A stretch of 32,000 nt of DNA from SAR324 cluster bacterium (lineage in GTDB: Bacteria > SAR324 > NAC60-12): assembly GCA_015232315.1 (NCBI GenBank), contig JADFZZ010000032.1, forward strand, positions 796-32,795, written 5' to 3'. The translations under genes were made by a program, and so were the position numbers. Shown here piece after piece: positions 10,129-31,400 of this stretch. The stretch's first letter is position 1. Every line of letters begins with the position of its first letter. The notes under the pieces are model-generated. The model saw nothing but the letters and a program-made list of their open reading frames with translations, was not told the origin of the DNA and searched no databases.

Positions 10129-11022
10129 TTATTGCATTTCAAAATGACCTGTCAGATAGGCCGGTCCTCCGGGAGCATCTCCCACAAACACTTCATTTTT
10201 TTCTGTCACAAACAATCCAACTTTTGCTGGAAGCACCAACGGTCTGGTGAATTTCACATCGAACACCTTGATTTTACGACCATCGGCTCCGCAAATGCGG
10301 TTCACGCCTTCCATCGCTCTGGCCATGGTTCCAAAGCCATGCAGAATGGTGCTTTTAAATCCGGAGGCCCTGGCATAGGAAGGGATCCAGTGGATGGGGT
10401 TAAAATCGCCTGTAAGCTTGGCAAAATCGAGCCCCGCGTGGGCACTCAGTTTCCAGAATCCAATTTCCCGAACGTTTTTGGGAACCCTTGCAGGCTCGGA
10501 TTTCTTCCCGCCTTCTTCTTTTTTGTGGGGCAAGGGAACAATCGCATATAAATGAGCTGTCAGCGCGTTGGGTGTTGAAGCGGTTCCTGTAATAATTTTC
10601 TGGTGCAGAACAGCGCGTTTGCCATTGTCATTAACATCTTCAAGGCGTGCTGTGATCTGGAGGGGTTCATTGTTGGGCAGGGGGTGATTGACTTCAATCC
10701 TGCAACCGCCATTCATGACTTTCATTAACGGATAAGGGACACCGCACAGAGTTTGAGAGGCAAGTCCGAAGGCCCATTGAGGAAACAAATGGGGCGGAAG
10801 TTCTTTCTTGTACATTCCGGGATCCCCACCAACATGTCGAATGTAATCATTCACCAGATCCAGCGAGCGTGGCGGTAATGTTTTCTGGATTTCCGGCCCT
10901 GGTATAGTGATAGCAGAGCCCTGCCTGTGATCAAAACGCTGCATGAACGCGGTCAATACGGTTTTCCCCATGCCAGCGAGGACTGTCCCCTGTTTGAGTA
11001 TATGCCTGCTTGAAACACCCAT
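10129..11022 (-). CDS. MaoC-like (R)-specific enoyl/hydroxyacyl dehydratase, double hotdog (HtdX-like)
   Basis: Hydratase-2 motif LTGDFNPIHWIPSYARASG. The length (~297 aa) fits a double hotdog fold. The track start at 11028 is a GTG, and ATG 11022 has AAAGG 5 nt upstream, so the start is uncertain by 6 nt. Confidence 0.87.
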   Translation of the reverse strand: MGVSSRHILKQGTVLAGMGKTVLTAFMQRFDHRQGSAITIPGPEIQKTLPPRSLDLVNDYIRHVGGDPGMYKKELPPHLFPQWAFGLASQTLCGVPYPLMKVMNGGCRIEVNHPLPNNEPLQITARLEDVNDNGKRAVLHQKIITGTASTPNALTAHLYAIVPLPHKKEEGGKKSEPARVPKNVREIGFWKLSAHAGLDFAKLTGDFNPIHWIPSYARASGFKSTILHGFGTMARAMEGVNRICGADGRKIKVFDVKFTRPLVLPAKVGLFVTEKNEVFVGDAPGGPAYLTGHFEMQ

Positions 11023-11052
11023 GAACACCTTTCGAATCAGTTTTTATGTGTT

Positions 11053-11069
11053 TTAATAAAATTTATTAA
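11053..11069. promoter_or_regulatory. Perfect 17-bp AT palindrome upstream of the beta-oxidation-like operon (candidate operator)
   Basis: TTAATAAA-A-TTTATTAA lies 31 nt upstream of the MaoC start, in a very AT-rich intergenic region. TTAAT-AATA-ATTAA follows nearby. Confidence 0.3.
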
Positions 11070-11213
11070 TATCAAATATATATTAATAATAATTAAGCGG
11101 ACACTTGTTCATTAGAGCAAATGTTCTACGCTGATCATCCTGAAAAATCAATGAGAAAATTTATTGAAAGTGGGGGGCTTTTCTTGTCGAAATATTGTGT
11201 TTTTATGACGGGA

Positions 11214-12080
11214 CTATTCAAAATCGATAATTCCGGTGATTTTCCACATGTGCCCACCGAGTCCGACATATTCAGCTTCGGGAGTTGTTGTGATCAATCT
11301 GCTGTGATAAAAAGGATTCCACAATACGGGATTGTTATCCAAAAGCCAGAATTCAGCGCTCAATCCCCAGCCTTGCTGACCTTTCAGGGTTAATCCCGCT
11401 CGCTGAAAGCCAATCAGGGAATCAGCCACAAAGTGATCATAGCGTTCTTCCAGATCGTCCACCGGAATTTTTGTACCATCCTCCCGAAACGCTGTATGGA
11501 GTGTGCTTTCCACATGCATGGCCCCGACTCCCGCAAATAAACGAAGGGGAGGCGGTAACAATGAGTCCTCTGCGTAAAATGAAAATGCTATATAATAATA
11601 ATGTGTCCTTAAGTGAATCATCGGGGTGGACTGGATGGGATCATTCTGGACATTTTTTGAGGTATTATCCGTAAGCCATGTGTTGGTATACCCACCTGTC
11701 CAACTCAACGCGGAGATGATTGAGGATTCCAGCGATATCAAATATTCTATAGAAAATGGTGGCAGAGAATGCGCAAGCTTCCCCCATCTGGACTCTTCAG
11801 CTTCAGTGTGCCGATCTTTTGAAAGCCCCCCGACGTTGGCCCAGGAGGCATTGAAGGAGCCGCCCCCATCCCGGAATTTTTCATTTCCTGTCATGACATA
11901 AAACGGATGTTCTGTGTATCCCTGATAGGTCATTTCCAGCAATCCAACCTGCCACCATGTTTTTGTTTCTCCTGAAGCTGTTGTCTCAGGTAATAATTCA
12001 GATGGTTCCTGGGCCAGAGCCACTGTGGTCCATGCAATCAGAATCCAGATACGCCATAACCAGTGTTTTATACGTTTCAT
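11214..12080 (-). CDS. Secreted protein of unknown function (possible outer-membrane beta-barrel)
   Basis: Start moved to ATG 12080, giving the signal peptide MKRIKHWLWRIWILIAWTTVALA|QEP. The mature part is rich in W/Y/G/T. The longer track ORF (to 12293) would run through the hsp20 promoter and CIRCE. Confidence 0.55.
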   Translation of the reverse strand: MKRIKHWLWRIWILIAWTTVALAQEPSELLPETTASGETKTWWQVGLLEMTYQGYTEHPFYVMTGNEKFRDGGGSFNASWANVGGLSKDRHTEAEESRWGKLAHSLPPFSIEYLISLESSIISALSWTGGYTNTWLTDNTSKNVQNDPIQSTPMIHLRTHYYYIAFSFYAEDSLLPPPLRLFAGVGAMHVESTLHTAFREDGTKIPVDDLEERYDHFVADSLIGFQRAGLTLKGQQGWGLSAEFWLLDNNPVLWNPFYHSRLITTTPEAEYVGLGGHMWKITGIIDFE

Positions 12081-12260
12081 TCCCGTTTTGTCCCATGAGG
12101 TGAGTGAATGGTAACAGTTTCTGTGCAAGACTATCGCTCTGCACTGAGTTTTCCTGTTTAGCGAAAAACAGGTTTGAAGGGCATCTTCATGCCACTGATA
12201 TCCTTCCCTGATACCAATAACTCCTTTTCTGTAAAAAAATAAAATTTTTAAAAAGGGGGA

Positions 12261-12288
12261 TTGACAAGAATTTTTTATTTGATATATT
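12261..12288 (+). promoter_or_regulatory. sigma70-type promoter of the hsp20 operon
   Basis: TTGACA (12261-12266), a 16-nt spacer, then TATATT (12283-12288). Confidence 0.6.
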
Positions 12289-12313
12289 AGCACTCAAGTT
12301 AAGTGAGTGCTAA
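12287..12313 (+). promoter_or_regulatory. CIRCE operator (HrcA binding site)
   Basis: TTAGCACTC-aagttaagt-GAGTGCTAA matches the CIRCE consensus TTAGCACTC-N9-GAGTGCTAA perfectly. It overlaps the -10 box and TSS region, 34 nt upstream of the first hsp20 ATG. Confidence 0.88.
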
Positions 12314-12346
12314 TAATATTAAAAACATAAACATATGGAGGTTGAT

Positions 12347-12775
12347 ATGTGGAATAATTCACTCTCAAGAACAGTCAATGCAATGCTGTCGTTACAGGAT
12401 GCGCTTGATCGGGCACATGCCAATGATTTTTTCGGAGGCCACACCACCAGTCGCGGAGTGAATCCGCCTGTAAATCTGTTTGAAAAAGATGGAGATGTGG
12501 TGCTGGTTACTGAACTTCCTGGTGTGCATAAGGAAAACATCAAGATGGAGGTGAAGGAAAATATGATCCGGCTATCCGGTGAACGGAAACTGGATTATAG
12601 CGAAAATTGCAGTTGTCATCGCATGGAGCGTGGCGCATGGAAATTTGATCGATCCATCAAATTACCCTTCCGGGTTGATAATGATAAAATCAGGGCTGAA
12701 CTCAAAAACGGCTTGCTGGTGGTTTCTCTTCCCAGAGCCGAACAGGATAAACCACGGCAAATTGCCATCAATTGA
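12347..12775 (+). CDS. Small heat-shock protein, Hsp20/alpha-crystallin family (copy 1)
   Basis: Alpha-crystallin domain PPVNLFEKDGDVVLVTELPGVHKENIKMEVKENMIRLSGER...FDRSIKLPFRVDNDKIRAELKNGLLVVSLPRAE. Start at ATG 12347, with GGAGG 5 nt upstream. Confidence 0.92.
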   Translation: MWNNSLSRTVNAMLSLQDALDRAHANDFFGGHTTSRGVNPPVNLFEKDGDVVLVTELPGVHKENIKMEVKENMIRLSGERKLDYSENCSCHRMERGAWKFDRSIKLPFRVDNDKIRAELKNGLLVVSLPRAEQDKPRQIAIN

Positions 12776-12816
12776 TAAATAATTATAATCACTGAACCAA
12801 TTGATCAGGAGGTCAT

Positions 12817-13224
12817 ATGAGTATCGAAAATAAAGATCTGAATAAAACAGAGCAGAATGTCACCAAAAAGGAATCTGGTGAGGAAAAAACTGTCGCAGGT
12901 CGATTTTATAGTCCACCGACAGATATCGTTGAAACCGATAAGTCGCTGATTGTGAATATGGACATGCCGGGAGTCTTGAAGGAAAATCTTGCTATCCGTC
13001 TGGAAAACCAGGTGCTGGAAGTGGAGGGACACATTGATTTCAGCCCGTATCAGGGATTGAATCCGATTTATACGGAATACAATGTTGGTCATTACACCCG
13101 CAAATTCACTGTATCCAGTTCGATTAATACGGATAAAATTGAAGCATCTCTCAATGATGGCGTTCTGACATTGACTTTGCCCAAGGCGGAAAAAGCACAG
13201 CCAAGACAGATTCAGATCAGTTGA
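12817..13224 (+). CDS. Small heat-shock protein, Hsp20 family (copy 2)
   Basis: PPTDIVETDKSLIVNMDMPGVLKENLAIRLENQVLEVEG...FTRKFTVSSSINTDKIEASLNDGVLTLTLPKAE. AGGAGG RBS. Confidence 0.92.
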   Translation: MSIENKDLNKTEQNVTKKESGEEKTVAGRFYSPPTDIVETDKSLIVNMDMPGVLKENLAIRLENQVLEVEGHIDFSPYQGLNPIYTEYNVGHYTRKFTVSSSINTDKIEASLNDGVLTLTLPKAEKAQPRQIQIS

Positions 13225-13282
13225 CCATTGATAAGCCCTGTGCCTTGGAGCATGGGGCCTTCAGGAGAACAGGAGGATCTAT

Positions 13283-13474
13283 ATGAGAAAACAGCACGAG
13301 GAAAAGCAATTGACACATGAGGAAATTCAGCAGGCCATGCAAAATTTTCTCGCAAAAGGAAAATCCATTAAAATTCTGGCCCCACAGGAAATATACCAAC
13401 ATGATTATGTCGGTGGATACAACTGGGGACCTTATGAATCAATGGATTCTCTTGATTTTAATACGTTGTCATAA
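13283..13474 (+). CDS. Small hypothetical protein (63 aa) embedded in the hsp20 operon
   Basis: Strong RBS (ACAGGAGGATCTAT-ATG). It sits in its own intergenic slot between hsp20 copies 2 and 3. I recognise no family. Confidence 0.45.
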   Translation: MRKQHEEKQLTHEEIQQAMQNFLAKGKSIKILAPQEIYQHDYVGGYNWGPYESMDSLDFNTLS

Positions 13475-13533
13475 CAAAGGTTTCGCCTAATATTTCGAAG
13501 TATTATTCTTTACTTTTTATGCATGGAGGTCAT

Positions 13534-14055
13534 ATGTCATGGAAAGATTTGATCACATGGAATCAAAAAAAAGATGGATATAATAATCCTGTCAAAGTTG
13601 ACACTGCGATGGATCAACACCCGATGGTGATGTTTCATCGTGAAATGGACCGGCTATTTCAGGATTTTTTCAAGGATTTCTGGTCTCCCTCCACTTTCTG
13701 GGGCCGAGAGGGCGGCAGCATGTTTTCACCGAAACTGAATGTCAGTGAGGATGAAAAACAGATTGATGTGACTCTTGAAATTCCGGGGATGGACGAAAAG
13801 GACATTCGAATTTCCCTGAAGGATGACATTCTGTCCATCAAGGGAACGAAAAATCAGGAAAAAGAAGATAAGCAAAAAGAGTATCACCATATTGAGCGTT
13901 CCTATGGTTCGTTTCAACGATCCATTCAGTTGCCTTGTGAAGTACAGGCTGACAAAGTGCAGGCTTCCTTTAAAAAGGGCGTGTTGTCTGTGACGCTTCC
14001 CAAAGTTGAGAATGCACAATCCAGAGTACGAATCATCCCTGTTCAGGGCAACTGA
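13534..14055 (+). CDS. Small heat-shock protein, Hsp20 family (copy 3)
   Basis: PKLNVSEDEKQIDVTLEIPGMDEKDIRISLKDDILSIKGTK...FQRSIQLPCEVQADKVQASFKKGVLSVTLPKVE. Start at ATG 13534, with GGAGG 4 nt upstream. Confidence 0.92.
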   Translation: MSWKDLITWNQKKDGYNNPVKVDTAMDQHPMVMFHREMDRLFQDFFKDFWSPSTFWGREGGSMFSPKLNVSEDEKQIDVTLEIPGMDEKDIRISLKDDILSIKGTKNQEKEDKQKEYHHIERSYGSFQRSIQLPCEVQADKVQASFKKGVLSVTLPKVENAQSRVRIIPVQGN

Positions 14056-14155: not shown

Positions 14156-14171
14156 TGGATTATTCTTTGCA
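14156..14171 (+). promoter_or_regulatory. Candidate sigma54 (-24/-12) promoter for the stator/FliG-like operon
   Basis: TGGATTATTCTTTGCA has GG and TTGCA at exactly the spacing of TGGCACG-N4-TTGCA. Only TGG of the -24 box is conserved. It lies 63 nt upstream of ATG 14234. Confidence 0.3.
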
Positions 14172-14233: not shown

Positions 14234-15211
14234 ATGAAACGGTTACTCATTACATTGATGTTATTATCATGCTGCTGGCTGACAGCCATGGCGGAAGAAA
14301 CAGAAAAATCCAGTATTTTCTGGGAGGATCGGGAGATTGGTCAACTGGAAAATATGACGCCGGAATTGCTGGCCGCTGTCAAGCGCATGCATAACCGGAT
14401 TCCCTCGGTCGCAATTTCGACCACCACCATCGATGAAAATCTGAGTCCCAAATTAAGAAGGGTTCTGGTTTCCCGATTGTATGAAATATTGACCACGGAT
14501 GTGGCCTTGAAAATCGGAAAATGCGATGAATGCGGGCAGATACGCAGTGAGCTTTCCGGAAGTTTTCTCAAAATCAGTCGCGGCATCGCGGAAGATGCCT
14601 ACCGACGTTCCAAAGCACGTGAACTGAATGTCGCAGGATTTCTGGACATTTCTGTTTTCATGAGCGAACGGCAACTTTCTGTCACCTTCACCGCTTATGA
14701 TGCCCAGGATGGAAAAATTGCGTTTTCGGAGATCATCACCGGTGATCCGGGTGGACGAACAGAATATACCAATATCTATCTGGGACGATTCAACATTCCA
14801 ATTGCCATTGATGGCACATCCATTGATCATTCAGCCTATATTCTTGGAATGGAACTTTCCAAGCGCATATCGGAATCATGGTTGTTTGCAGGAAATGTGG
14901 CACTTCTGACAGACAATAACAGCAAGTTGACCACCAAATATCCTGACAGTATTTCAGGATTGATGATTGACGGCACTGCCATGTATGAGATGGTTCAGGC
15001 TCTTGGCGGTCGTGCGACAATCGCGGGTGTATTGGGCATGGGGCAATTATTGGCTCCCGCCTTGACGTCACCGTTTTATGCTAAAGTCGGAACAAAAATC
15101 GCGGTAGGTGAGAAACTCACCATTAATCTGCATTATATGTCATTCATCCCTGCCTTGACGACTCCTGAAACAACTGGTGCGACGTATATGGCTTTAGGAT
15201 GGCAGTGGTAA
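14234..15211 (+). CDS. Secreted protein, probable outer-membrane component (periplasmic N-domain + Gly-rich beta C-domain)
   Basis: Start moved to ATG 14234, giving the signal peptide MKRLLITLMLLSCCWLTAMA|EE. The N-domain pattern (VAISTTTIDENLSPKLRRVLVSRLYEIL...NVAGFLDISVFMSERQLSVTFTAYDAQDGKIAFSE) recalls LpoB/FlgO/CsgG-type periplasmic scaffold domains. The C-terminus is Gly-rich with alternating strands and ends ...ALGWQW (aromatic terminus). Confidence 0.6.
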   Translation: MKRLLITLMLLSCCWLTAMAEETEKSSIFWEDREIGQLENMTPELLAAVKRMHNRIPSVAISTTTIDENLSPKLRRVLVSRLYEILTTDVALKIGKCDECGQIRSELSGSFLKISRGIAEDAYRRSKARELNVAGFLDISVFMSERQLSVTFTAYDAQDGKIAFSEIITGDPGGRTEYTNIYLGRFNIPIAIDGTSIDHSAYILGMELSKRISESWLFAGNVALLTDNNSKLTTKYPDSISGLMIDGTAMYEMVQALGGRATIAGVLGMGQLLAPALTSPFYAKVGTKIAVGEKLTINLHYMSFIPALTTPETTGATYMALGWQW

Positions 15212-15252
15212 TCAAACACGGATGTTAATTCATAGATTCCAGGGAAGGTAGT

Positions 15253-16578
15253 ATGCGTCAATTTCGTAAATATGCGGCATGGCTGTTATTGACAGGAGGT
15301 CTCGCAGGATGTTCCTCCTCCGCTGAAGAGGTGGAAAGTGCCCCCAAAGTATCCAGACAAACCATTTATAATCAGTTCATTGATGGTGGAAAAAGCTCAA
15401 TCAGCGTTCTGGAGGAAACCATTGGTGGTAAAAAGCAGATCCGGATTGTGCTGAAAAAAGAGGGCGTTGATTCCAGCATCACACACCCTATCGACAATCC
15501 AAATTTCGTGATCGCAGTCCCACTGCATGATCCTACCAGTGCCAGAGTCGGTATTCAGACCATTGATTTTGAAAATGAAAAACGACGTTTGATTGAAGAA
15601 TTACTGCTGAGGTATATTCCACGTGATCGTTTCAATGTTTCCATTAAACTGTTTTGGGATGAAAAACGACTGGAAGAACTCCAACTCAAGGGGGTGCCAT
15701 TTCAAGAATCAATGGGAAGCACACAACCCGTCCCAACAGCATCAACCAAAGCGCCCGATAAATTGAATTATGAACTGGAACAGGCCGTGATTCGGCAGGA
15801 AACCAGGATTATGCTGGACAACACACTGCCAGCATATCAGGAAAAATTTGTCCGACTGCTACTGCCTTCCCAAACTTTTTTTGTCAAATCACGCGGAGAC
15901 ACGGCCACCGTGGAGCGTGTGATTTTCCCCAAGGCATCACCCGAAAGTATTGCGCCTGAGGAAGAACGACTGATCCGTGAAAAAGTACAGAAAATGATTC
16001 AGGAATATCTGAGTCAGGATGATTTTGTGGTCAATGTCCGGCTCAGTATGAAAGGTGGACAAAACATTCAGAGCATCACTGGACAGGGCGATCAGATTTC
16101 TGTGGCCTCCATGTCCACTGCAACGGATCAGGTGAGTGACCGCATGAATATCAATATCAATGTTCTGCTCAATGATCTGACCTCTCCGGATACCGATGAG
16201 TTTCTCCGCAACACGATTCCCTATGCCATTCACATGGACATGGCGGATGGCGACCAGTTGACCATCACCCGCAAACGGTTTCCGGAAAAAGATTATGGTC
16301 AGATTTCGCCACAACAGGTTGCGCAACTGGAAGAATACAAACGGGAAATTCTTACCGCTTTTGAATCAGGGAATTATGCAGGTGGCCTGGATCTGGTTAA
16401 AAAGGCCATGAAGATCAGTGTAAAACGGGACGACCGCCTGAGTTTGCTAAAAATGCAGGGGTCGCTGTATTTTCTGCTTCAGGACAAACAGCGTGCTCGC
16501 GAAACATGGGAGCATTTGATCAAACTTGATCCGGAAAACGAAGAAGCAAAACAAATGCTTATGAATTTGGTGAAATGA
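15253..16578 (+). CDS. Lipoprotein with two ring-module-like repeats and a C-terminal TPR region
   Basis: Lipobox LLTGGLAG|C (Cys20). Internal modules are RRLIEELLLRYIPRDRFNVSIKL and EERLIREKVQKMIQEYLSQDDFVVNVRL...MNININVLLNDLTSPDTDEFLRNTIPYAIHMDMADGDQLTITRKRF. TPR-like C-terminus (...LKMQGSLYFLLQDKQRARETWEHLIKLDPENEEAKQML). Confidence 0.8.
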   Translation: MRQFRKYAAWLLLTGGLAGCSSSAEEVESAPKVSRQTIYNQFIDGGKSSISVLEETIGGKKQIRIVLKKEGVDSSITHPIDNPNFVIAVPLHDPTSARVGIQTIDFENEKRRLIEELLLRYIPRDRFNVSIKLFWDEKRLEELQLKGVPFQESMGSTQPVPTASTKAPDKLNYELEQAVIRQETRIMLDNTLPAYQEKFVRLLLPSQTFFVKSRGDTATVERVIFPKASPESIAPEEERLIREKVQKMIQEYLSQDDFVVNVRLSMKGGQNIQSITGQGDQISVASMSTATDQVSDRMNININVLLNDLTSPDTDEFLRNTIPYAIHMDMADGDQLTITRKRFPEKDYGQISPQQVAQLEEYKREILTAFESGNYAGGLDLVKKAMKISVKRDDRLSLLKMQGSLYFLLQDKQRARETWEHLIKLDPENEEAKQMLMNLVK

Positions 16579-17855
16579 CCATGAGACTGAAACGATTTGG
16601 ACTGACATTGTTATGTTTGGGACTGACCGGAATGTTTTTCGGAACATTTTACGCGGCAGAACCGGAATCCTCTGCTGTAACCGCAGAAATGCCTAGCAGA
16701 CCTTCCATTTTGCCTGATTCCGCTATGGATATTCCGGCGGAAATGCCAGTTGTGCCAGAAGCACCCGCGACGACTGCGGTGCCTGTTACATCAACCGCGC
16801 CCTCAAAGGCCGCGGACTCTACTGTTGTGCCCCCTGCGCCCGTAAAAGCAGGCAATGCTTCTGCTCCAACGATGCCAGTGCAGGAACAGCCAAGACGGCC
16901 CGAACCACGAAACACCAACGAAATTATTTCCGCGCCCTTTGAACAATTGAAAAAACTGTATGGCAAACCTGAGGGGACAACCCTGGAACAACCAGCAGAA
17001 GTGGACCAGAAACCAAAACAACCTGAAGTTGTTGAAACCAAAACGAAGTCACCGATTGAAGAAATGGATTTGCCTTCGCTTTCAGAGCAACAGGAAACGG
17101 AACGGAATCTTGAGTTCAAACTGGAAACAGCCCTGAAAGAATTATTGCTGGACAAATATGTTCAGGTCAAAGTGATTGTCCATTATCTCGTCAATACTGT
17201 TCCAATCACTGAAAGCAACAAGCAAATATCACAAATGCGGCTTCCGGGATTTAAAAATCAGGTGTGGGTGCCGATTGATCAGAAAAAAGTAACAGGCCTG
17301 GTGCATCGGTTGACACGTTACAACAGTATTTTTGTGGTGGTCAATCAGCCGGTATCACCGTTTGATCTGGAAGTCCTGCGACAAAAACTGAATGCAAAAA
17401 TCGCTGAAATTGATCTGGAAACCAATGATTTTCTTAAAGTCGCTTATGTTCCACTGGCAGAAATGCCAGGAACTGAAAAGCCAATGGCATCCCAACCGGA
17501 AACTCAGTCAGAGGCCACTGATCAGGTTGAAAAAATGCCTGAACCTGAAATAACGCCAGAACCGCCCAAACTTGTTTCAGCCAATGAACAACGCGATGTC
17601 GAAGTAAAATCAGCCAAGCAATTGCTCGAAGCACGCACCGCGTTTTTCAGGAATGACCTGAAAGAAGCGTTGGATAAAATCAATAAAGCCATTGAAATGA
17701 ATCCTGACTCCGCACAGGGCTATGCCATGCTGGGGTCGGTGTATTATCGCCTGAAATGGTATGGACAGGCAAAAAAACACTGGAAAAAATCTCTGGAACT
17801 GGAGCCTGACAATCCTTTGATTGCTCAGTATCTCGAACGATTGGAGAACGAATGA
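16575..17855 (+). CDS. Secreted or anchored Pro/Ala-rich protein with a ring-module-like domain and C-terminal TPR
   Basis: N-terminal hydrophobic signal (LTLLCLGLTGMFFGTFYA|AEP) and a ~140-aa P/A/T/E-rich linker. The module is LEFKLETALKELLLDKYVQVKVIV...SIFVVVNQPVSPFDLEVLRQKLNAKIAEIDLETNDFLKVAYVP. The TPR is AQGYAMLGSVYYRLKWYGQAKKHWKKSLELEPDNP. The ATG at 16575 overlaps the upstream TGA; an alternative ATG is at 16581. Confidence 0.8.
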   Translation: MTMRLKRFGLTLLCLGLTGMFFGTFYAAEPESSAVTAEMPSRPSILPDSAMDIPAEMPVVPEAPATTAVPVTSTAPSKAADSTVVPPAPVKAGNASAPTMPVQEQPRRPEPRNTNEIISAPFEQLKKLYGKPEGTTLEQPAEVDQKPKQPEVVETKTKSPIEEMDLPSLSEQQETERNLEFKLETALKELLLDKYVQVKVIVHYLVNTVPITESNKQISQMRLPGFKNQVWVPIDQKKVTGLVHRLTRYNSIFVVVNQPVSPFDLEVLRQKLNAKIAEIDLETNDFLKVAYVPLAEMPGTEKPMASQPETQSEATDQVEKMPEPEITPEPPKLVSANEQRDVEVKSAKQLLEARTAFFRNDLKEALDKINKAIEMNPDSAQGYAMLGSVYYRLKWYGQAKKHWKKSLELEPDNPLIAQYLERLENE

Positions 17856-19744
17856 TGGCACGCTATCTTAAAACAGGTTGGATCTGTCTGTTGCTGAGCC
17901 TATGCGTTTCAGGGCATGTATGGGCTGAAGAACGCATCACATCCCTGCCTGCGAAACAGTATGAAATTGAATCGGCCATTCACAACAGCCTGCGGCATTA
18001 TATGGAACCACAGGACTATGTGATCAAAGTCTGGCTGAAGGGAAAGAAAAAAACCATTGAGACCTTCCCTTTCAAAAATTTCAGTTCATCAACGGATGAA
18101 GTCCTGCCCGGATTCGGTACACCGCCCTCGCCTGTAACCAACGAAGACCCTGTCGCCGTTGAAGGCGAAACTTACTGGGTTGTGGAACAGATGCGTGTGG
18201 ATTTGATTCTTTACAAAGAAATATCTCCATCGCTGGCCACCTATATCACAGAGATCATTCCCGTCTTAAGCGGAATGAATTCTCAACGTGGCGATGTATT
18301 CAATTTTATGCCGATCAAACCCAAACCACTTGAAAGCGACAGTCCCAGACCGTTGAATCCTGATGGCAGTGCCATGGATGGTGCGTCGTCATCTTCAGAT
18401 CAGGCTGTCGCCACACCTGAACCGGAACCAACCCTTGAACAAATGCTGATTCCGCAAACACCAATGGAATGGCTACAGGCAGGGGTGAGTTTGCTGTTAT
18501 TGCTCCTGATCCTCTTTATTTTCTGGAGAATCATTAAATTACAGAAACAGCAGAAAGCCGCGCAGGCCGCCCAGGAAAAATCCGCTGTGGACATCCGGGA
18601 TCTGGTGCCTTCTCCGCAAAACGCCATCGCGACGATTCAACAGGCTCGTCAAGATCTGGTGCGCCGGCAGGATGAGCATGTTCAGGAAATATTGCTGGTT
18701 GAAGAAAACAACCGGCTTTTGCAGGAAATCATCAAACAACTGGTAGGACGTGAAGACTGGAAACAGCATCTGATTGAGGAAATGACACGGGATAAACAGT
18801 CCACCGAAGCCTTCACACGGTTGCTGGCCATGATGGGACCCCAGACGGCCCGCCGGCTGTTTTCCGAACAGTTGGGACATGAGGCCTATCTGGATCTGGA
18901 ACAACTGGCCCGGGATCTTTCGTTCACACCACAAGAGGCCAATTCGATTCTGAAGGATATCTGGACATTTTTATTCACTAAAAAGCTGACCTTGCCTGAA
19001 AAAGTAGCGACGGATCCTTTTGGTTATCTGTTGAAATTGTCTACCGGGCAAATCGCGTTTTTGCTCAAGGATGAACCGGTCAAAATCAAGGCACTGGTTG
19101 TCAGTCGCCTGAACAGTGAACAGGCAACAGAAGTGATCGGACATTTCCCGAAAGATGAACGGACTCAGGTCATGCTGCATCTGGGCAAGATGGAGGAACT
19201 TCCTCTCGAACTGGTGTCGCAGGTCGCTTATAATCTGGCTGACAAGGTACGAAGCCTGCCTGACAGCAATACTGTCGCGGTCAATGGAGTGAATCTCGTG
19301 ATTGATGTCCTGGGTGAGGTCGAACATGGAGTTCGGCAGGACATCATCAACGGCTTGCGGATTTCTGATCAGCGTTTGAGTGATATGGTGGAAAGCCGGT
19401 GTTTCATTTTTGAATCCATTCCGTTTGTACCCAAAGAAGTTTTGATGGAAGTGGTCCGTCGTTTACCGCTGGATGATGTCATTATTGCGATCTCCGGTGC
19501 GACAAAAGAAATCAAGGAAGCCGTCATCCTGTGTTTTCCTGAGCAAAACCGTCAGGCGATTGTATCTGCCTTGAAAGCAAAAACACCATCCCCGGATGAC
19601 ATTCGGGAAAAACGCAGGGTGTTTGCCCAATCCATGCGTGGCATGGCAGAAAACAACAGGGTCGATTTGAAAGAAATCAACACCGCGTGGGCCCAACAGC
19701 ACGATGCTGTTCCAGCCCTGAATTTTGAACAGCAGGAGTCATAG
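17852..19744 (+). CDS. Bitopic membrane protein: periplasmic FliF/YscJ-like module, one TM helix, cytoplasmic FliG-like (middle + C-terminal) domain
   Basis: Signal peptide ...CVSGHVWA|EE and TM helix SLLLLLLILFIFW (aa ~206-226). The C-terminal ~230 aa align by eye to FliG: LLKDEPVKIKALVVSRLNSEQATEVIGHFPKDERTQVMLHLGKM; NGVNLVIDVLG; CFIFESI (cf. MFVFEDI); AISGATKEIKEAV (cf. ALKGAS.E.KEK). GGAG RBS, and the ATG overlaps the upstream stop (ATGA). Confidence 0.85.
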   Translation: MMARYLKTGWICLLLSLCVSGHVWAEERITSLPAKQYEIESAIHNSLRHYMEPQDYVIKVWLKGKKKTIETFPFKNFSSSTDEVLPGFGTPPSPVTNEDPVAVEGETYWVVEQMRVDLILYKEISPSLATYITEIIPVLSGMNSQRGDVFNFMPIKPKPLESDSPRPLNPDGSAMDGASSSSDQAVATPEPEPTLEQMLIPQTPMEWLQAGVSLLLLLLILFIFWRIIKLQKQQKAAQAAQEKSAVDIRDLVPSPQNAIATIQQARQDLVRRQDEHVQEILLVEENNRLLQEIIKQLVGREDWKQHLIEEMTRDKQSTEAFTRLLAMMGPQTARRLFSEQLGHEAYLDLEQLARDLSFTPQEANSILKDIWTFLFTKKLTLPEKVATDPFGYLLKLSTGQIAFLLKDEPVKIKALVVSRLNSEQATEVIGHFPKDERTQVMLHLGKMEELPLELVSQVAYNLADKVRSLPDSNTVAVNGVNLVIDVLGEVEHGVRQDIINGLRISDQRLSDMVESRCFIFESIPFVPKEVLMEVVRRLPLDDVIIAISGATKEIKEAVILCFPEQNRQAIVSALKAKTPSPDDIREKRRVFAQSMRGMAENNRVDLKEINTAWAQQHDAVPALNFEQQES

Positions 19745-19765
19745 AATTTTTTATAGGTCTGAGTT

Positions 19766-20725
19766 ATGAAAGACACCATTGGCACACTTCTGGGCTTTTT
19801 AATTGGTATTTCCCTCGTCTTGTTTGGAATCACCTGGCCTGATCATTTGTCCAACTATTACATGTATCAGTTGCGCGAATATGAAATGGCCACAAAGCAG
19901 ATGAAAAAAGACGGGGTGCCTCGCAACCAGATTCAGGAACTTGAACAGAAATTCTCAGAGTTTCAGGATTCATGGATCGGAACCATGTCCCGCTTTATTG
20001 ATCTCAAATCGTTTTTGATTGTGATGGGCGGCGCCTATTCCGCGATGATGGTCGCGTTTCCGTTTGACAAGGCGATGGGGGCTTTTGTGTTCATTGTCAG
20101 GGTGTTTGCGTCATCCGTGAAGAAGGAAGAATTTCTGGATGTGTATCACACCGTTCTCAAACTGGCTGAAAAACGAGTGAACAATGCCATCCTCACCGAT
20201 GAGGATATCAATGCTATTCATTCAGTGGATCTAAAACGTTGGGTTCAGGATTTCATTGTGGTCGATATCGTTGAAGAAAACATGATTGAGGAAATTGTTC
20301 GATCGGAAATTGAAATGTACAATTATCGTTCTTTTGAAGAAATTGATGTCCTCAATTTTCTTGGTGCCGCGTCTCCCGCTTTTGGAATGCTCGGTACCGT
20401 GGTTGGTCTGATTCTGATGCTGGGAAATACGGGTGGTGATGTAGCCGGTGTGATGGGGGGAATGTCCATTGCGTTGATCACGACATTGTATGGAGTGTTT
20501 CTGGCCCAGATCATGTTTTTGCCGATAGCATCCAAACGCTATCAAATGAAAGAGTCGCACATCATGTTGCTGGAAATGATCAGAGAAGGTCTGCTCTATC
20601 TCAAACGGCGTGAAATTCCTGATACGATCTCCCAGGATTTAATCATTTATCTGCCTCTCAAAATGCGTCAGAAAATCACTGAAGAAAAAATGGCGGCGAT
20701 GCGTGAGGGTAATTTGGGATTGTGA
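19766..20725 (+). CDS. motA: MotA/PomA-family stator channel protein with an enlarged first periplasmic loop
   Basis: SPAFGMLGTVVGLILML and GGMSIALITTLYGVFLAQIMFLPIASK match MotA TM3/TM4, including both conserved prolines. There is a ~50-aa insertion between TM1 and TM2. Confidence 0.9.
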   Translation: MKDTIGTLLGFLIGISLVLFGITWPDHLSNYYMYQLREYEMATKQMKKDGVPRNQIQELEQKFSEFQDSWIGTMSRFIDLKSFLIVMGGAYSAMMVAFPFDKAMGAFVFIVRVFASSVKKEEFLDVYHTVLKLAEKRVNNAILTDEDINAIHSVDLKRWVQDFIVVDIVEENMIEEIVRSEIEMYNYRSFEEIDVLNFLGAASPAFGMLGTVVGLILMLGNTGGDVAGVMGGMSIALITTLYGVFLAQIMFLPIASKRYQMKESHIMLLEMIREGLLYLKRREIPDTISQDLIIYLPLKMRQKITEEKMAAMREGNLGL

Positions 20726-20728
20726 TCT

Positions 20729-21376
20729 ATGGCCAATCGAAAAGACGCATCAACCGAAACCCCTGCATGGGTGGTTTCTTTTGCCGATCTGATGAGCTTG
20801 CTGTTCAGCTTTTTTGTGCTGCTCACCACACTTTCCACTCAGCCGAAAAATTGCGAGGGCATCCGTGAATATATGGAAAACAACAAGGCGTTTTTTAAAA
20901 ACTATGAACTTCGATCCACTAAACTGAGTTGCATTGTTTCCTTACCTCAAGATTATCTGTTCAAATCAGGACAAGGCAAAATCCAGCCTTCGGCCTTCAA
21001 AGCGCTCACTCCATTTTTTGAGAAAATCCGCGATCTGCCGGAACATCGTGAAGATCTGTTGATTGTGGAAGGTCACACCGACAATGTGCCCATCCATACC
21101 CGTGAATTTCCCAGCAATTGGGAACTCAGCTCGGCCAGAGCCACCAATATTTCCGTATTCATGATGGAAAAACTCAAATTTGCCCGCGAACGACTGTCCG
21201 TTTCGGCCTATGCGGATTCGCGTCCCAAAACCCCCTATGTAGACACTTACGGCAAACCATTAACCGGCAAGGACCTCCAGAATGCTCGACAAACCAACCG
21301 TCGAGTTGAAATCATTCTGACAACACCCCCCAAATCCCTTGAGGAAACCACCATGCTGTTTGATGGTCGGGAATAA
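20729..21376 (+). CDS. motB: MotB-family stator protein (OmpA-like peptidoglycan-binding C-domain)
   Basis: PAWVVSFADLMSLLFSFFVLL carries the conserved channel Asp. OmpA_C motifs are VEGHTDNVPI, SNWELSSARATNISVFM, YADSRP and NRRVEI. It starts 3 nt after the motA-like stop. Confidence 0.9.
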   Translation: MANRKDASTETPAWVVSFADLMSLLFSFFVLLTTLSTQPKNCEGIREYMENNKAFFKNYELRSTKLSCIVSLPQDYLFKSGQGKIQPSAFKALTPFFEKIRDLPEHREDLLIVEGHTDNVPIHTREFPSNWELSSARATNISVFMMEKLKFARERLSVSAYADSRPKTPYVDTYGKPLTGKDLQNARQTNRRVEIILTTPPKSLEETTMLFDGRE

Positions 21377-21842
21377 GGCCCTCATCTGACCTCATCAATA
21401 CTGTGTGAATTATTTTTTCACGATAATGAGGCCATATTATGCAATATTAACTCATGTGATGCAATAAACTTTTTTAAATAAAAAATATGAGTTTTCTCAT
21501 CACAACGCCGCTAACGCAGAGGGCCAATGGCTGACAGTTCGCACTCTGAATCATTTCGGATTGAGGAAACAAAAAACTTTGATTTCAGCCGGATATATTG
21601 TCAGTTACCACAAAGTGCTGTCCATTGAAAACAAGCCTGGCAGGCGTAAAGAGCATTCAAAAAAAACTCCTTGACGAAGGGCTAGTGAATACGCTACATG
21701 CATATCTAATATCTAACAAAGGCCAGGGGAGGATCTTTGTTTACAACGATTTCCCAAATCGGGGGGGATTAACCAGCCCCCTGTAAACATTGGCAATTGT
21801 GAGATATTGTTTATTTTTTTAACTAATCTCTTTGGAGGAAGT

Positions 21843-22427
21843 ATGAAAATGTTCAAACAATGGAAAAAAAGATGGGCTGGATTCAGTCTTGTAGAAATTG
21901 TAATCGCCATCGCGGTCATCGGGATCATGTCTGCGGCGTCAGTGCCCCTGATCAAAAGCACACTCGATAAATCAAAAAATTCCCGCGCAAAAAGCGAACT
22001 GGAAGAAATACGAAATGCGTCTGTGTCATTTTATGGCGATACCTTTCAGGTTCCCGGTAATATTGGATGTACCAAGACAGCCACAACCCATCTGCTGACA
22101 GATACAGCAGCGGCAAAAATTGACATGTCCAAAGCAGGGACTGTGACATCTGATGATCTGGATGCGCATTTCAATACGAACTGTACAGGTGCCAATGCCG
22201 GTAAATATACAGACAATAGCTTGGGTGGCGCCTGGAGAGGCCCATACATGGAAGCTGATCGCTATGATCCATGGCAAAAATCTTATGTATTGGTCACAAA
22301 TACATTTGGAACTACTGATACCGCATCCGGTTATGCTCTTTCCGGTGGAACCGATGAGCAGGTCAACACTGCCAAGGCTACAGCCGCAAGTACCAGTGAT
22401 GTATATATCAAAGTCAGTCTGAAATAA
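21843..22427 (+). CDS. Type II secretion pseudopilin / type IV pilin-like protein (GspG-like), orphan
   Basis: Prepilin signal KRWAG|FSLVEIVIAIAVIGIM (Gly-1, Phe+1, Glu+5). GspG-like motifs are WRGPYM and DPWQKSY. Start at ATG 21843, with GGAGG 4 nt upstream. Confidence 0.85.
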   Translation: MKMFKQWKKRWAGFSLVEIVIAIAVIGIMSAASVPLIKSTLDKSKNSRAKSELEEIRNASVSFYGDTFQVPGNIGCTKTATTHLLTDTAAAKIDMSKAGTVTSDDLDAHFNTNCTGANAGKYTDNSLGGAWRGPYMEADRYDPWQKSYVLVTNTFGTTDTASGYALSGGTDEQVNTAKATAASTSDVYIKVSLK

Positions 22428-22438: not shown

Positions 22439-22459
22439 AAGGCGGGTCACTCCCGCCTT
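22439..22459 (+). terminator. Rho-independent terminator after the pseudopilin gene
   Basis: AAGGCGGG-tcact-CCCGCCTT followed by TCTTTT. It overlaps the stop codon of the convergent minus-strand gene. Confidence 0.7.
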
Positions 22460-25341
22460 TCTTTTAGCTGACGATTCAGCTCTTCAAAGTGATTTCCCAT
22501 CCAACTCAACAGTTTCTTCTCATGCGGTGGAAAGCGTGTGTCAGACATGATGAATGTCTGGAAAATTTGAAGATACATGGCTTTTTCTCCGGCTTTCAGC
22601 ATTTCGACCTCCATTGCGCTCAGAAATACAGGATTGTATTTGGGCGGTGATGAATTTTGCAGGATGTTCCTGATTAAATCTTTCAGGTGATCCAACTGGT
22701 CCGTATACAGAAAATCCAGAAACAGAAATTCATCCTGAAACTTTTTTGGGGGAATATCCTTTCGGACTAGCTCACGATACAATGTGACAGCTTCCAGTTT
22801 ATCCCACATTTGTGCCATATTTCTGGGGTGCGTGATTTTTTTGAATTGATGATCAATCTCATTCCAGTTGGAATTTTTGCGGGCAATTCGCAGGGAATCT
22901 GTCAGCCATTCCAATTTTTCTGAAGGAATTGGCGGAGCATTTTTAAAATAATCTGTTTGAGCTCTGGAAAAATTTTCTGGTTCCAGAATTTCCTGATAAA
23001 ATGAAATAGCATTTATAAATGACCAGAACAAATCCACTTCCTGACTCAGAAACAACGCTTTTTCCGCACTGTTATCAACCAGAGGGAAAAAATATGAATT
23101 GGGATTCACATCTTCCAGAATAGGGCGTAGACTCTGGGTTGAAACAATAAAATTCTGAGGGCCGAACAAACGGGTATCCCCCTTGAATTTCAAAAATTCC
23201 TGAGCAATCTCTGGTTCTCGTTCAAAACGATCAATGGCATCCAGATTGAAATCAGTGTTGCCTGCAACAATCACATAATTTGCTTCACCAGCCAGATATA
23301 TTTTTGCGTAGGGAAAACGATTATCCAGAGCCTTGATAATGGTCAGCATGAGTTCTGTGTTGAAGGAATAACCATGGACCCATTGGACCAGTAAGCCTTC
23401 TGGTTTTAGAAATCGTTGGATGTGCTCGTAGAATTCTTCGGTGAACAGGCTCGAAACACCACTGACCCAAGGATTTGATGGTTCTGAAATGATAAGGTCA
23501 TATTGTCTGTTGGCCTGATAGAAATAGGTTTTGGCATCATCAAAAATAGGACGGATTTTGGGACTGTCATACACATTTCGATTATAAGGATAGAAATTTT
23601 TTGCCAATTCATACATCTGTTCTTCAATTTCGATCAAATCCAGATGTTTTAACAAGGGGTCGGATAGCAGATAGTGTGCAGACATACCACTGCCCAACCC
23701 GATCATTGCGGCGTCATAAGGCTGATTCATCGCAGCCATCGGAACAAACGCGGCAGCGGCCTGAGTATATTCATCTTCAGATATGGTGCCTTTCAATCCG
23801 ATACTCGCATCAACCTTGCCATTTGTTGCGATCATTGACCTGAATGGATTGAACGTGAATGAGATGGTTGCTGTTTTTCCATCCTTGACGAGTATTTGAT
23901 GAAAATCTCCGGCATTCAGCTTGCCACGAAAAACACCTATTGTGGTAAGATTCGGGTCAAGTTTGATATGCAATACAGGAATAAAGACCAGCACAGAAAC
24001 GCAGAGTGTCGCAATGAACTTCCATCGGGAAAGCTTATAGGCACCCAGCAGCACAAGTCCCAGACCGATATCAATCAAAGCTCCTGAGGCAATGGTGTAT
24101 TTGATCTGAAAATTCGGCAATAGCAATAACCCTCCCAGAGAGGCGCCAAGTATGGCTCCTATCGTATTCCAGCCATATACAAATCCAGTGTATTTTTCAT
24201 TGCGTGTAAAATTGATCAGATAATAAGTGATCAATGGCAGTGTCATTCCCGCAAAGAAACTGGTGGGTGCCATCATCAATAGGCAGATCAGATATTTGAA
24301 TATGGAATAGACTGGATAGGCGAGTTCTGTTTTTCTGAATACAGAATGTGAGTCGCTGATCGCGTAAAAAAACGGCTCGTAAAAATAGATGCTGCTCAAC
24401 GCAAACGCCCCCATGAGAATCTGGATGAAAGCCAACGTATGCGCGATGTTTCGTGAAGAGTCAATCAGCTTGCGGGCATAACCGCCTCCCAGGGCCAACC
24501 CCAGGATGAACGCGGAAATCATGATATCAAACGAATGGGTTGAAGATCCCAGCAACAACCCCAGAAGCCTGATCCAGCCAACTTCGTAAATGAAGGATGA
24601 AAACCCTGTCAGACCGCTGATCAACAACCATAGTCCAATGGTGCGCTGATCCGGAAGTTCATGTGAAATTTCCTTGTGAGATTCCGCACCGGAAAAAGAT
24701 TCTGTTATTTTGGGGCCAATGATTTTATCAGCTTTTTTGGCGATGAAATAAAACATCAATGCAATCAGTACATTGGAAGAACCAGCAATGGCGAGAGTTC
24801 CTATGGTTCCCATTTCCGGAATGAGCAGATAGGAAGTCGCCAGAATTCCAATGGCGGCACCCAGAGAATTGGTGAAATATAACACAGGCAGTGAAGAACG
24901 TCCTTCATCTCTGCTGACACGAATGACACCCACTGTGATGAATGGAAAAGTCATTCCAAGCAGGATCGCGGTCGGGAGCGTCATCAGCATGGAGATCAGC
25001 ACCTTGGTCAGATTGGCAAACCAGAAAGACGAAAAATATACATTGGCGGCTTCATAAAACCATTGGGTACAGACTAGATAAATTCCGTGGAAGACAAAAC
25101 CTGAAACGCCCACCAGCAACTCAATGGCAGCATAGACATAAAATGGATTCCGGATATTCCGACAGAGTCGTCCTGCCAGAAACGACCCGATGCCGAGTCC
25201 ACCCATAAAAATGGAAAGTGTCAGGATCTGACCATAAAACGAATGTCCGAGAAATAATTTAAGATACCGGGACCACAGTGATTCATAAATAAGACCAACA
25301 AATCCTGAAACAACGAACAGACCATAAATCAGGCGAACCAT
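22447..25341 (-). CDS. Fused polytopic membrane domain + spermidine-synthase-like (aminopropyl/methyltransferase fold) protein with a long C-terminal extension
   Basis: The N-terminal ~450 aa have many hydrophobic helices. The central region MIGLGSGMSAHYLL...LDLIEIE...DLIISEPSNPWVSGVSSLFTEEFY...LKPEGLLVQW is a spermidine synthase family signature. The track start at 25347 is a TTG; ATG 25341 is preferred. Confidence 0.85.
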   Translation of the reverse strand: MVRLIYGLFVVSGFVGLIYESLWSRYLKLFLGHSFYGQILTLSIFMGGLGIGSFLAGRLCRNIRNPFYVYAAIELLVGVSGFVFHGIYLVCTQWFYEAANVYFSSFWFANLTKVLISMLMTLPTAILLGMTFPFITVGVIRVSRDEGRSSLPVLYFTNSLGAAIGILATSYLLIPEMGTIGTLAIAGSSNVLIALMFYFIAKKADKIIGPKITESFSGAESHKEISHELPDQRTIGLWLLISGLTGFSSFIYEVGWIRLLGLLLGSSTHSFDIMISAFILGLALGGGYARKLIDSSRNIAHTLAFIQILMGAFALSSIYFYEPFFYAISDSHSVFRKTELAYPVYSIFKYLICLLMMAPTSFFAGMTLPLITYYLINFTRNEKYTGFVYGWNTIGAILGASLGGLLLLPNFQIKYTIASGALIDIGLGLVLLGAYKLSRWKFIATLCVSVLVFIPVLHIKLDPNLTTIGVFRGKLNAGDFHQILVKDGKTATISFTFNPFRSMIATNGKVDASIGLKGTISEDEYTQAAAAFVPMAAMNQPYDAAMIGLGSGMSAHYLLSDPLLKHLDLIEIEEQMYELAKNFYPYNRNVYDSPKIRPIFDDAKTYFYQANRQYDLIISEPSNPWVSGVSSLFTEEFYEHIQRFLKPEGLLVQWVHGYSFNTELMLTIIKALDNRFPYAKIYLAGEANYVIVAGNTDFNLDAIDRFEREPEIAQEFLKFKGDTRLFGPQNFIVSTQSLRPILEDVNPNSYFFPLVDNSAEKALFLSQEVDLFWSFINAISFYQEILEPENFSRAQTDYFKNAPPIPSEKLEWLTDSLRIARKNSNWNEIDHQFKKITHPRNMAQMWDKLEAVTLYRELVRKDIPPKKFQDEFLFLDFLYTDQLDHLKDLIRNILQNSSPPKYNPVFLSAMEVEMLKAGEKAMYLQIFQTFIMSDTRFPPHEKKLLSWMGNHFEELNRQLKERRE

Positions 25342-31395: not shown

Positions 31396-31400
31396 GTTTT

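Follow-up and report, generated by a model that had tools for sequence, protein, structure and literature searches.

In a 32,000-nucleotide (nt) stretch of DNA from a metagenome-assembled genome (MAG) of a SAR324 cluster bacterium (hereafter the window, in which all coordinates are given unless another locus is named), six co-directional genes at 14234-21376 of the plus strand, G1 to G6, form an operon that places a MotAB-type stator beside G4, a single polypeptide in which part of the flagellar ring protein FliF is fused to a complete FliG-like region. The anatomy of this module and its conservation are solid. As to what it does, we see about an even chance that the operon specifies a flagellar-motor-derived, envelope-spanning rotor-stator device that is not a flagellum. 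No description of the transmembrane (TM)-FliG family to which G4 belongs, or of the module, was found in the full-text literature searched, and a flagellar-type rotor and stator in this new, minimal and non-export context is apparently undescribed.

FliG is regarded as a flagellum-specific torque receiver. To our knowledge, the only known activity of its C-terminal domain (FliG_C) is receipt of torque from MotA, and the only known activity of the third ring-building motif (RBM3) of FliF is ring building. FliF rings have about 34 subunits. The non-flagellar stator relatives that we know of (ExbBD, TolQR, GldLM, AglRQS and ZorAB) all act on quite different partners. A phylogeny of MotAB that defines flagellar ('FIT') versus generic stators mentions no partner of the kind described here (PMC12505986), and according to a survey, 11% of non-motile species have rotor genes that lack an explanation (PMC12199754).

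Results

Organization of the operon

All six open reading frames (ORFs) are intact and lie exactly where the preliminary description had placed them, and its statement that they are separated by overlaps or gaps of at most 41 nt is borne out by spacings of +41, -4, -4, +21 and +3 nt, in order. G1 (14234-15211) encodes a predicted outer-membrane protein with the C-terminus GWQW, G2 (15253-16578) a lipoprotein with an LAGC lipobox, two RBM3-like domains and a tetratricopeptide repeat (TPR) region, and G3 (16575-17855) a secreted or anchored protein with a Pro-rich linker, an RBM3-like domain and TPR. They are followed by G4 (17852-19744), the candidate one-piece rotor with FliF-RBM3-like and FliG-like parts, G5 (19766-20725), a MotA/PomA-type stator A subunit, and G6 (20729-21376), a MotB-type B subunit. 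The National Center for Biotechnology Information (NCBI) call for G1 (HQM11_17120, 325 aa) matches the start at 14234, and G4 is identical to the NCBI protein HQM11_17135; both are encoded on a 58.9-kb contig. The earlier assignment of the products to all layers of the envelope stands, including the aromatic C-terminus of G1 and the lipobox of G2, with the refinement that four FliF-type ring-building domains are distributed across G2, G3 and G4.

G4 joins a FliF part to a FliG-like region

At 630 aa, G4 comprises more than a FliG: it also has a signal peptide, a domain in the periplasm and a TM helix. In its AlphaFold2 (AF2) model (predicted local distance difference test, pLDDT, 70.7), the signal peptide, a periplasmic domain (aa 32-153), a TM helix beginning at aa 204, a long coiled coil and an all-helical region (aa 301-617) follow each other in this order. 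The cytoplasmic FliG-like region (18719-19702, ~aa 290-617) comprises helices like those of the FliG N-domain, FliG_M (Pfam, 2e-14, aa 400-471) and FliG_C (7.5e-14, aa 502-605), the latter two above their gathering scores; sequence matches to FliG in the PDB reach 3e-14. A FliG-like fold, which had been proposed for this part of the protein, was recovered independently by Foldseek, which matched G4 to full-length FliG structures, in-situ C-ring chains included, at 4e-9 to 1e-7 over 310-339 columns. Among NCBIfam models, the TIGR00207 fliG equivalog is matched below its cut-off (74.1 versus 226.7 bits). EHPQR is the FliM-binding motif of FliG; the segment of G4 aligned to EHPQ reads DEPV, and EHPQR is not conserved across the G4 family either.

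The sole periplasmic domain of G4 (17927-18331, aa 26-160, ~135 aa) has the order alpha-beta-beta-alpha-beta. Two strands of 13-14 residues flank a disordered loop with LPGFG, and the domain ends in the motif RGDxFxFxPI. Pfam YscJ_FliF gave no match on G4 at E values up to 0.1, and RBM1 and RBM2 are absent. Nonetheless, Foldseek matched G4 to RBM3/S-ring structures of FliF (8z4g, 8z4d, 6sd1 and 8t8p) at 1e-3 to 3e-2 over 140-158 columns with a probability of 1.0; the match to SpoIIIAG was weak (E 0.5). Moreover, a profile of 16 distant members of the G4 family aligned to a genuine FliF, P0509 (with Pfam YscJ_FliF and YscJ_FliF_C), at 6.5e-12 and 61.7 bits. This alignment spans FliF residues 228-478, that is, RBM3, the collar and the second TM helix (TM2), and takes in the LPG segment and the end motif 'RGD-x-L-x-I-x-x-x-PF', both of which are present in G4 too. 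The single TM helix of G4 lies at 18461-18535 (~aa 204-228).

An exhaustive phmmer search with G4, covering 1.84 billion representatives of clusters at 50% identity, gave 2214 matches, 367 of them below 1e-10. The best 150 of the 2214 include 100 proteins of at least 520 aa, and in 93 of these 100 long representatives a hydrophobic stretch occupies the position of the G4 TM helix (a TM helix at residues 150-400), with the LPG and RGD motifs present as well in 75. From the homology to RBM3, collar and TM2 together with the FliG-like region, G4 is the C-terminal half of FliF fused to FliG: a single chain holds the S-ring/beta-collar RBM3 and second TM helix of FliF and a complete FliG-like region.

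G4 is unlikely to be the ordinary FliF or FliG of its host, as it is devoid of RBM1, RBM2 and the FliM motif and falls below the fliG equivalog cut-off; the report of fliM in SAR324 (supplement of PMC9031357) also weighs against that assignment. In one locus (L029), the N-terminal domain of G4 occurs twice (4985-5350 and 7115-7480 of that locus), ~2 kb apart on a short contig, as a result of local duplication or misassembly.

G5 and G6 resemble a flagellar stator

G5 matched Pfam MotA_ExbB at 2.7e-21, and its best PDB matches were flagellar MotA and PomA (1e-25 to 1e-17). Within NCBIfam, the MotP, PomA and MotA models matched at 2e-35 to 2e-29, as against 4e-4 for ExbB and 8e-4 for TolQ; since all equivalog cut-offs were missed, G5 is not an equivalog of any named stator. 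The two MotA prolines pointed out earlier (P204 and P253) are invariant in nine orthologues, as are R136 and D144/E145, whose spacing we take to be that of R90/E98 in Escherichia coli. G6 contains MotB_plug (2.2e-10) and an OmpA domain of the peptidoglycan-binding type (7.3e-13), and matched the MotB, MotD and MotS families of NCBIfam, all below cut-offs. Its channel Asp, D20 in FADLM, also noted before, is invariant in nine orthologues. By these matches, G5 and G6 constitute a flagellar-type stator, with an A subunit nearest to MotA/PomA and a B subunit that carries the channel Asp, the plug and an OmpA-like domain.

Between its TM1 and TM2, G5 carries an additional periplasmic loop (~45 aa; 19838-19990, aa 25-75), which is conserved in SAR324 and is missing from solved flagellar MotA/PomA structures and from the MotAs of related modules outside SAR324 (see below). 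A module-specific stator clade or signature was looked for and not found. A compensatory charge swap between G4 and G5 was also looked for: the canonical R/E pair is kept in G5 and the G4 side is changed, in an alignment of ambiguous register.

Two other assignments were rejected. A Zorya system, which has a ZorA with a long cytoplasmic tail together with ZorC/D or ZorE/F/G, or another defence system is not indicated, as PADLOC gave no ZorA, only generic ZorB/OmpA-type matches on G6 and no others. A generic motor of the ExbBD, TolQR, AglRQS or GldLM type does not fit either, given that G5 matches MotP/PomA/MotA at 1e-35 to 1e-25 versus ~5e-4 for ExbB/TolQ and that G6 has plug and OmpA domains.

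Periplasmic and outer-membrane partners

Following its signal peptide, G1 was modelled (AF2 with 13 orthologues, pLDDT 77.2) as an LpoB/TolB-N-like periplasmic domain (~aa 55-170) and an 8-stranded beta-barrel (~aa 177-324). Foldseek matched the barrel to the OmpA TM domain, Ail, NspA, OmpX, OmpW and PagL in the PDB at 8.5e-6 to 1e-3, and the N-terminal half to the C-domain of LpoB (2.1e-4, TMt 0.57). OMP_b-brl is matched by 6 of 19 members of the G1 family, and one distant G1 homologue gave a match to FlgO (0.0047-0.026) below the cut-off of that family. The model thus predicts a small outer-membrane barrel of OmpA size, and not a secretin or pore.

G2 bears, behind its lipobox, tandem FliF-RBM3-like domains, G2a (~aa 100-230) and G2b (~aa 232-348), and a C-terminal TPR region (~aa 350-441). 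G3 begins with a signal peptide or anchor, and its Pro-rich linker is followed by an RBM3-like domain (~aa 168-296) and TPR (~aa 335-426; Pfam TPR_2, 3.6e-10). The RBM3-like domains were linked to each other by hhalign: G2a with G2b (99.1%, E 7.2e-19), the G4 periplasmic domain with G2b (98.3%, E 1.7e-14), and G2b with the G3 domain (90.2%, E 1.6e-6). The direct match of the G4 and G3 domains is weak (16%, E 0.0016), yet it is full-length, and the LPGF motif is common to both. The link to FliF was also obtained directly, in that the G2a and G2b profiles align to FliF P0509 residues 243-403, and the G2 family profile matched the flagellar M-ring protein 12dr_A at 0.0048 (G2 aa 111-168 on FliF 246-306). 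Accordingly, the RBM3-like ring-building domain is, from profile comparison, present in four copies in three proteins, two in G2 and one each in G3 and G4. TPR had been reported for both G2 and G3; in G2 the Pfam TPR match is sub-threshold (22 bits versus a cut-off of 27), and the region was confirmed by its alignment to the G3 TPR (hhalign, 97.3%). Searches of G1-G3 against Pfam and NCBIfam gave no membership above threshold in FlgO, FlgP, FlgT, MotX, MotY, PflA or PflB, only generic TPR.

Conservation within SAR324

When a single genome of each GTDB species was scanned, 27 loci emerged, and every one belongs to a MAG labelled SAR324, 'Deltaproteobacteria' or Lambdaproteobacteria. The order G1-G2-G3-G4 is seen wherever the upstream sequence suffices (22 of 22 loci). 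motAB adjoins G1-G4 in seven SAR324 loci and does so at two positions, downstream of G4 in the window, L001 and L028, and upstream of G1 in L019, L020, L022 and L027. The module flanks examined in the marine clade contain no motAB; orthologues of G5 and G6 (62-64% identity), with the same insertion in the A subunit, are encoded there as a lone pair apart from G1-G4. The four loci in which motAB leads the operon (L019, L020, L022 and L027) also have an extra small TPR protein of 214 aa between G1 and G2 (e.g. L020, 7043-7687), and their G2 is only ~24% identical to that of the window.

Relatives beyond SAR324

The recurrence of the gene set, which the preliminary description left to be ascertained, proved to extend well outside SAR324. 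Named relatives of G4 are proteins of Bacteroidota, Ignavibacteria and 'Bacteriovoracaceae' MAGs, annotated merely as 'FliG C-terminal domain-containing protein' or 'hypothetical'. A five-gene operon encoding an outer-membrane protein (OMP, ~370 aa), a TPR protein, MotA, MotB and TM-FliG, which we call the FCB type (Fibrobacteres-Chlorobi-Bacteroidetes), was found in L030, L039, L040 and L041, and every metagenome locus whose flanks are long enough keeps this order (19 of 19; Bacteroidota/Ignavibacteria-type contigs). A third order, TM-FliG - OMP - TPR - MotA - MotB, occurs in L038 and L064. In L036 and L037 there is just a TPR gene directly upstream of TM-FliG locally, and its product is homologous to the G3 TPR. 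Five of the six window proteins have counterparts in the FCB-type operon by hhalign: G1 in the OMP (94.1%, 1.3e-7), the G3 TPR in the TPR protein (98.3%), G4 in TM-FliG (100%), G5 in MotA (99.9%) and G6 in MotB (99.9%). G2 is restricted to the SAR324 lineage.

Because the same genes co-occur in dozens of loci, a chance arrangement is far exceeded. The retention of the linkage through three gene orders and in very distant lineages is, moreover, strong evidence that the stator acts on the G4-type protein. The flanks of the module consist of housekeeping genes that differ among lineages, and no flagellar genes were seen in any module flank examined (~45 loci).

A conserved candidate promoter element

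A sigma-54-type -24/-12 element, TGGATTATTCTTTGCA, lies at 14156-14171 (+), 63-78 nt upstream of G1. In 20 of 23 SAR324 loci, the pattern TGG-N8-TTGC[A/T] precedes the first module gene by 54-130 nt, with at least nine different spacer sequences and a background of 0.018 per 250 nt; in L019, L020, L022 and L027 it precedes motA. Taken by itself, the window shows no enrichment of the pattern (5 occurrences versus 4.06 expected). The element is therefore a candidate sigma-54-type promoter of the module, on the basis of its match to the consensus and its positional conservation. Scans upstream of the module found no sigma-28-type promoter, though flagellin genes have one: marine SAR324 flagellins carry good sigma-28-type TAAAG-N-GCCGAT(G/T)A sites. 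Terminator and sigma-70 scans of the operon gave results no better than shuffles.

Neighbouring genes

As stated before, no flagellar genes adjoin the operon, and a flagellin gene (1674-3359, minus strand) is the sole flagellar structural gene in the window besides the module; the remainder is non-flagellar except for a CheX-like gene, and includes MinCD, fatty-acid genes, three Hsp20 genes, and genes for a pseudopilin-like protein, a spermidine-synthase-like membrane protein, a response regulator and a STAS protein. The flagellin gene has a good sigma-28-type promoter at 3355-3385, CAAGTTT-N11-GCCGATGA. Because the ATG at 3359 falls within the -10 element, translation probably starts ~20 codons downstream of it; in the ORF as listed, residue 27 is the first of Flagellin_N.

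Directly upstream of the operon are three tandem small heat-shock (Hsp20) genes (12335-14055, +), the last of which ends 100 nt before the sigma-54-type element. A 359-aa ORF at 11214-12293 (-) has no Pfam match and contains an internal signal-peptide-like start, MKRIKHWLWRIWILIAWTTVALAQEP; it may encode an envelope protein. After the operon, and a gap of 430 nt, comes a pseudopilin-like gene (21807-22427, +) with an N-terminal methylation motif and a weak match to the G protein of type II secretion systems (T2SS-G). It is not kept downstream in other SAR324 loci; in L001, large CarboxypepD_reg/Calx-beta proteins are encoded there. The gene at 22447-25347 (-) specifies a multi-pass membrane protein of 966 aa that has a spermidine-synthase-like domain at its centre, an unusual fusion. 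Further on, 28326-31775 (+) holds co-directional genes whose products are a CheX-like/DUF3334 protein, a response-regulator-like protein of 564 aa, an acyltransferase and a protein with a STAS domain; near the module in L038, too, there is a STAS gene, along with a sigma-54 activator. Aromatic amino-acid genes (3-deoxy-D-arabino-heptulosonate 7-phosphate (DAHP) synthase, prephenate dehydrogenase, chorismate mutase/prephenate dehydratase (PDT) and 5-enolpyruvylshikimate-3-phosphate (EPSP) synthase) are found beside the module in three lineages that are not related (L020, 857-2570; L036, 5594-9027; L038, 15072-16109), possibly by chance.

Discussion

A possible rotor-stator device

In its fullest form, to which we give slightly less than an even chance, the proposal is that the module is an autonomous, flagellum-independent rotary engine in which a homo-oligomeric FliF(RBM3)-FliG ring is driven by MotAB and, by a stack of RBM/TPR rings, connected to a tether in the outer membrane. 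It would occur in SAR324, in Ignavibacteria/Bacteroidota-type genomes and in other lineages, as an offshoot or surviving sister of the core of MS-ring, C-ring and stator. By way of the RBM3-like domain, G4 subunits would assemble into a ring in the inner membrane and expose FliG_C domains on its cytoplasmic face. Ion flow would then drive MotA5B2 units anchored to peptidoglycan, and these would turn the G4 ring as the flagellar C-ring is turned. G3, and in SAR324 also G2, may stack periplasmic rings on G4, with their TPRs connecting to the outer-membrane tether G1. Rotation or force passed along this path to the outer envelope could move or stress components linked to the outer membrane or to peptidoglycan. 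A G4 ring turned by MotA5B2 is the most economical arrangement, because FliG_C receives torque, RBM3 builds rings, and engineered FliF-FliG fusions form S-rings (PMC11481574; PDB 8z4d and 8z4g). The output is probably mechanical, and not secretion or filament export, since G1 is predicted to be an OmpA-size barrel and no export gate is housed. No chemotactic switch is expected, because the FliM/FliN-binding motif is missing.

Several observations weigh against an independent device. Three marine lineages (L032, L034 and L066; ~5900-11600) share the synteny flagellin - FtsJ-like methyltransferase - RadC / motA - motB, with motAB ~1-2.5 kb from a flagellin gene of the sigma-28 type. The MotAs of SAR324 and FCB-type modules score 56-88 bits against each other, versus 66-102 bits against solved flagellar MotA/PomA. 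The E. coli torque-helix residues R281, D288, D289 and R297 align to Q565, S572, A573 and P581 of G4 (HMMER/MAFFT; register ambiguous by 1-2 residues), and in the SAR324 clade the canonical charges are replaced by conserved E564, R567, K575 and K577. The named FCB-type relatives are MAGs of Ignavibacteria or Bacteroidota, two groups with flagellated members among them. Ring formation, rotation and output are what we infer of the G4 module. Finally, SAR324 genomes are flagellated (PMC9031357 and PMC4749706). The preliminary description had proposed the operon as a candidate self-contained unit of rotor, stator and scaffold. Its rotor-like anatomy is upheld, and extended, by the FliF RBM3 domains in G4, G2 and G3; self-containment is not shown for SAR324, because the host is flagellated, the stator has no module-specific signature, and the marine motAB lies near flagellin.

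Some of the same observations would fit a lineage-specific accessory of the ordinary flagellar motor, in which G1-G3 are periplasmic disks or a stator scaffold and G4 is an additional ring in the membrane that touches the MotAB units driving the C-ring, on their cytoplasmic side, to recruit, position or gear them. The preliminary description had itself raised such an alternative. We consider this less likely, though it is the main competitor. The flagellated host, the flagellin within the window, the marine motAB adjoining flagellin, and a stator that is of flagellar type and indistinguishable from flagellar ones all agree with it. Stator accessory proteins are often co-transcribed with motAB, and sigma-54 promoters, of which a candidate was found here, drive basal-body genes in many polar flagellates. 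The cast of OMP, lipoprotein and TPR proteins parallels the scaffolds of Vibrio and Campylobacter, and the weak FlgO match in one G1 homologue points the same way, but no membership above threshold in FlgO, FlgP, FlgT, MotX/Y or Pfl families was found. Moreover, the module never adjoins flagellar genes in the ~45 loci, and it is preceded by no sigma-28-type promoter of the kind that flagellins have. FliF-RBM3 and FliG in one chain duplicate a rotor and not a scaffold, and we know of no flagellar periplasmic scaffold of the Vibrio or Campylobacter type that includes a FliF- or FliG-like protein. A static FliG ring on stators would block them, if torque receipt is, as it appears, the only role of FliG_C. 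The stator pool of SAR324 may be common to the module and the flagellum, which would reconcile the rotary engine with an accessory function.

The replaced torque-helix charges of the SAR324 clade, the loss of the FliM-binding motif and the encoding of the stator elsewhere in marine SAR324 could also be taken to mean that nothing rotates. G4 would then be a docking or regulatory platform whose FliG-like domains bind MotA to sequester, store or gate the units (as a decoy rotor, brake or ion-leak regulator), with the envelope partners sensing the state of the envelope. Such a platform seems improbable to us: distant members of the G4 family retain Arg and acidic residues at the customary torque-helix positions, most lineages encode the stator within the operon, and sequestration needs no elaborate, conserved ring-building set with an outer-membrane tether. 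Least probable by far is that the genes are decaying leftovers of a duplicated flagellar set, with no function of their own. Incomplete sets of flagellar genes are common (PMC12199754), but here all six ORFs are intact, the G4 family has a mean column identity of 63% with many invariant residues, synteny and promoter element are kept across deep lineages, and G2 and G3 are elaborations rather than losses.

Comparison with known systems

The rotor-stator device as proposed has a close counterpart in the flagellar motor's core. Shared features are the RBM3/collar-like domain of G4, a TM helix at the position of FliF TM2, the N-, M- and C-like domains of FliG, and a MotAB of the plug-plus-OmpA kind in which the channel Asp, the two prolines and the R/E rotor-contact pair are present. 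The differences are that G4 is one membrane-anchored polypeptide of 630 aa instead of FliF plus a soluble FliG of ~330 aa tethered non-covalently to the FliF C-terminus, and that a signal peptide takes the place of FliF TM1. As RBM1 and RBM2 are missing, G4 offers nowhere to house a type III export gate. The operon and its vicinity are devoid of fliM/N, export, rod, hook and L/P-ring genes, and the module adds RBM3-like/TPR proteins and an outer-membrane barrel of OmpA size.

Covalent FliF-FliG chains have been described before. The natural fusion of Chlamydiaceae (Bergeron 2016, PMC4768692) likewise combines ring-building motifs, TM segments and a cytoplasmic FliG-like domain in one chain, in a host without a flagellum. 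However, it has ~330 aa, two TM helices, an RBM2-like motif and only a FliG_M-like region, is associated with no MotAB and was proposed as an injectisome partner, whereas G4 contains RBM3 and the whole of FliG_M and FliG_C, and is linked to a stator. The engineered fusions of Salmonella and Vibrio (8z4d and 8z4g, PMC11481574), the latter among the top FliF-type structural and sequence matches of G4, are laboratory constructs with full-length FliF, three RBMs and a normal flagellum.

Among envelope machines, the flagellar scaffolds of Vibrio (FlgO/FlgP/FlgT and MotX/MotY) and Campylobacter (PflA/PflB/FlgP/FlgQ) are similar in that OMP, lipoprotein and TPR-type periplasmic proteins are encoded with stators or act on them; the LpoB-like fold of G1 and its faint FlgO signal add to this likeness. 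GldLM of type IX secretion (T9SS) and gliding, TolQR-Pal, ExbBD-TonB, AglRQS-Glt and ZorAB resemble the module as ion-driven inner-membrane motors coupled across the periplasm to the outer membrane. Unlike the module, with its flagellar-type stator and proposed FliG ring, their A subunits are of the generic ExbB/TolQ-like sort, and FliG is missing. In function, the module is most nearly paralleled by GldLM, which drives the lipoprotein-containing GldKN ring. SpoIIIAG and SctJ/SctD share the alpha-beta-beta-alpha-beta ring-building motif with a beta-hairpin insertion and, on the arrangement proposed here, the stacking of paralogous ring proteins in one machine; the structural match to SpoIIIAG is weak, however, and the module has no secretion or feeding-tube components.

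Implications

If the autonomous reading is true, the module would provide the first known case of FliG at work apart from flagella, and would be a living model for a rotor-stator pair that lacks an export apparatus. It would help to account for the rotor genes reported in non-flagellated genomes (PMC12199754), and would mean that the rotor-stator pair is separable from type III secretion, which bears on the evolution of the flagellar motor. Devoid of export gate, rod, hook, filament and switch, it would also offer a far simpler system for studies of torque generation. If the module is instead an accessory of the flagellum, a second FliG-bearing ring on the stators would constitute a new principle of motor architecture. 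SAR324 bacteria are among the most abundant in the deep ocean, and for that reason the module is widespread ecologically.

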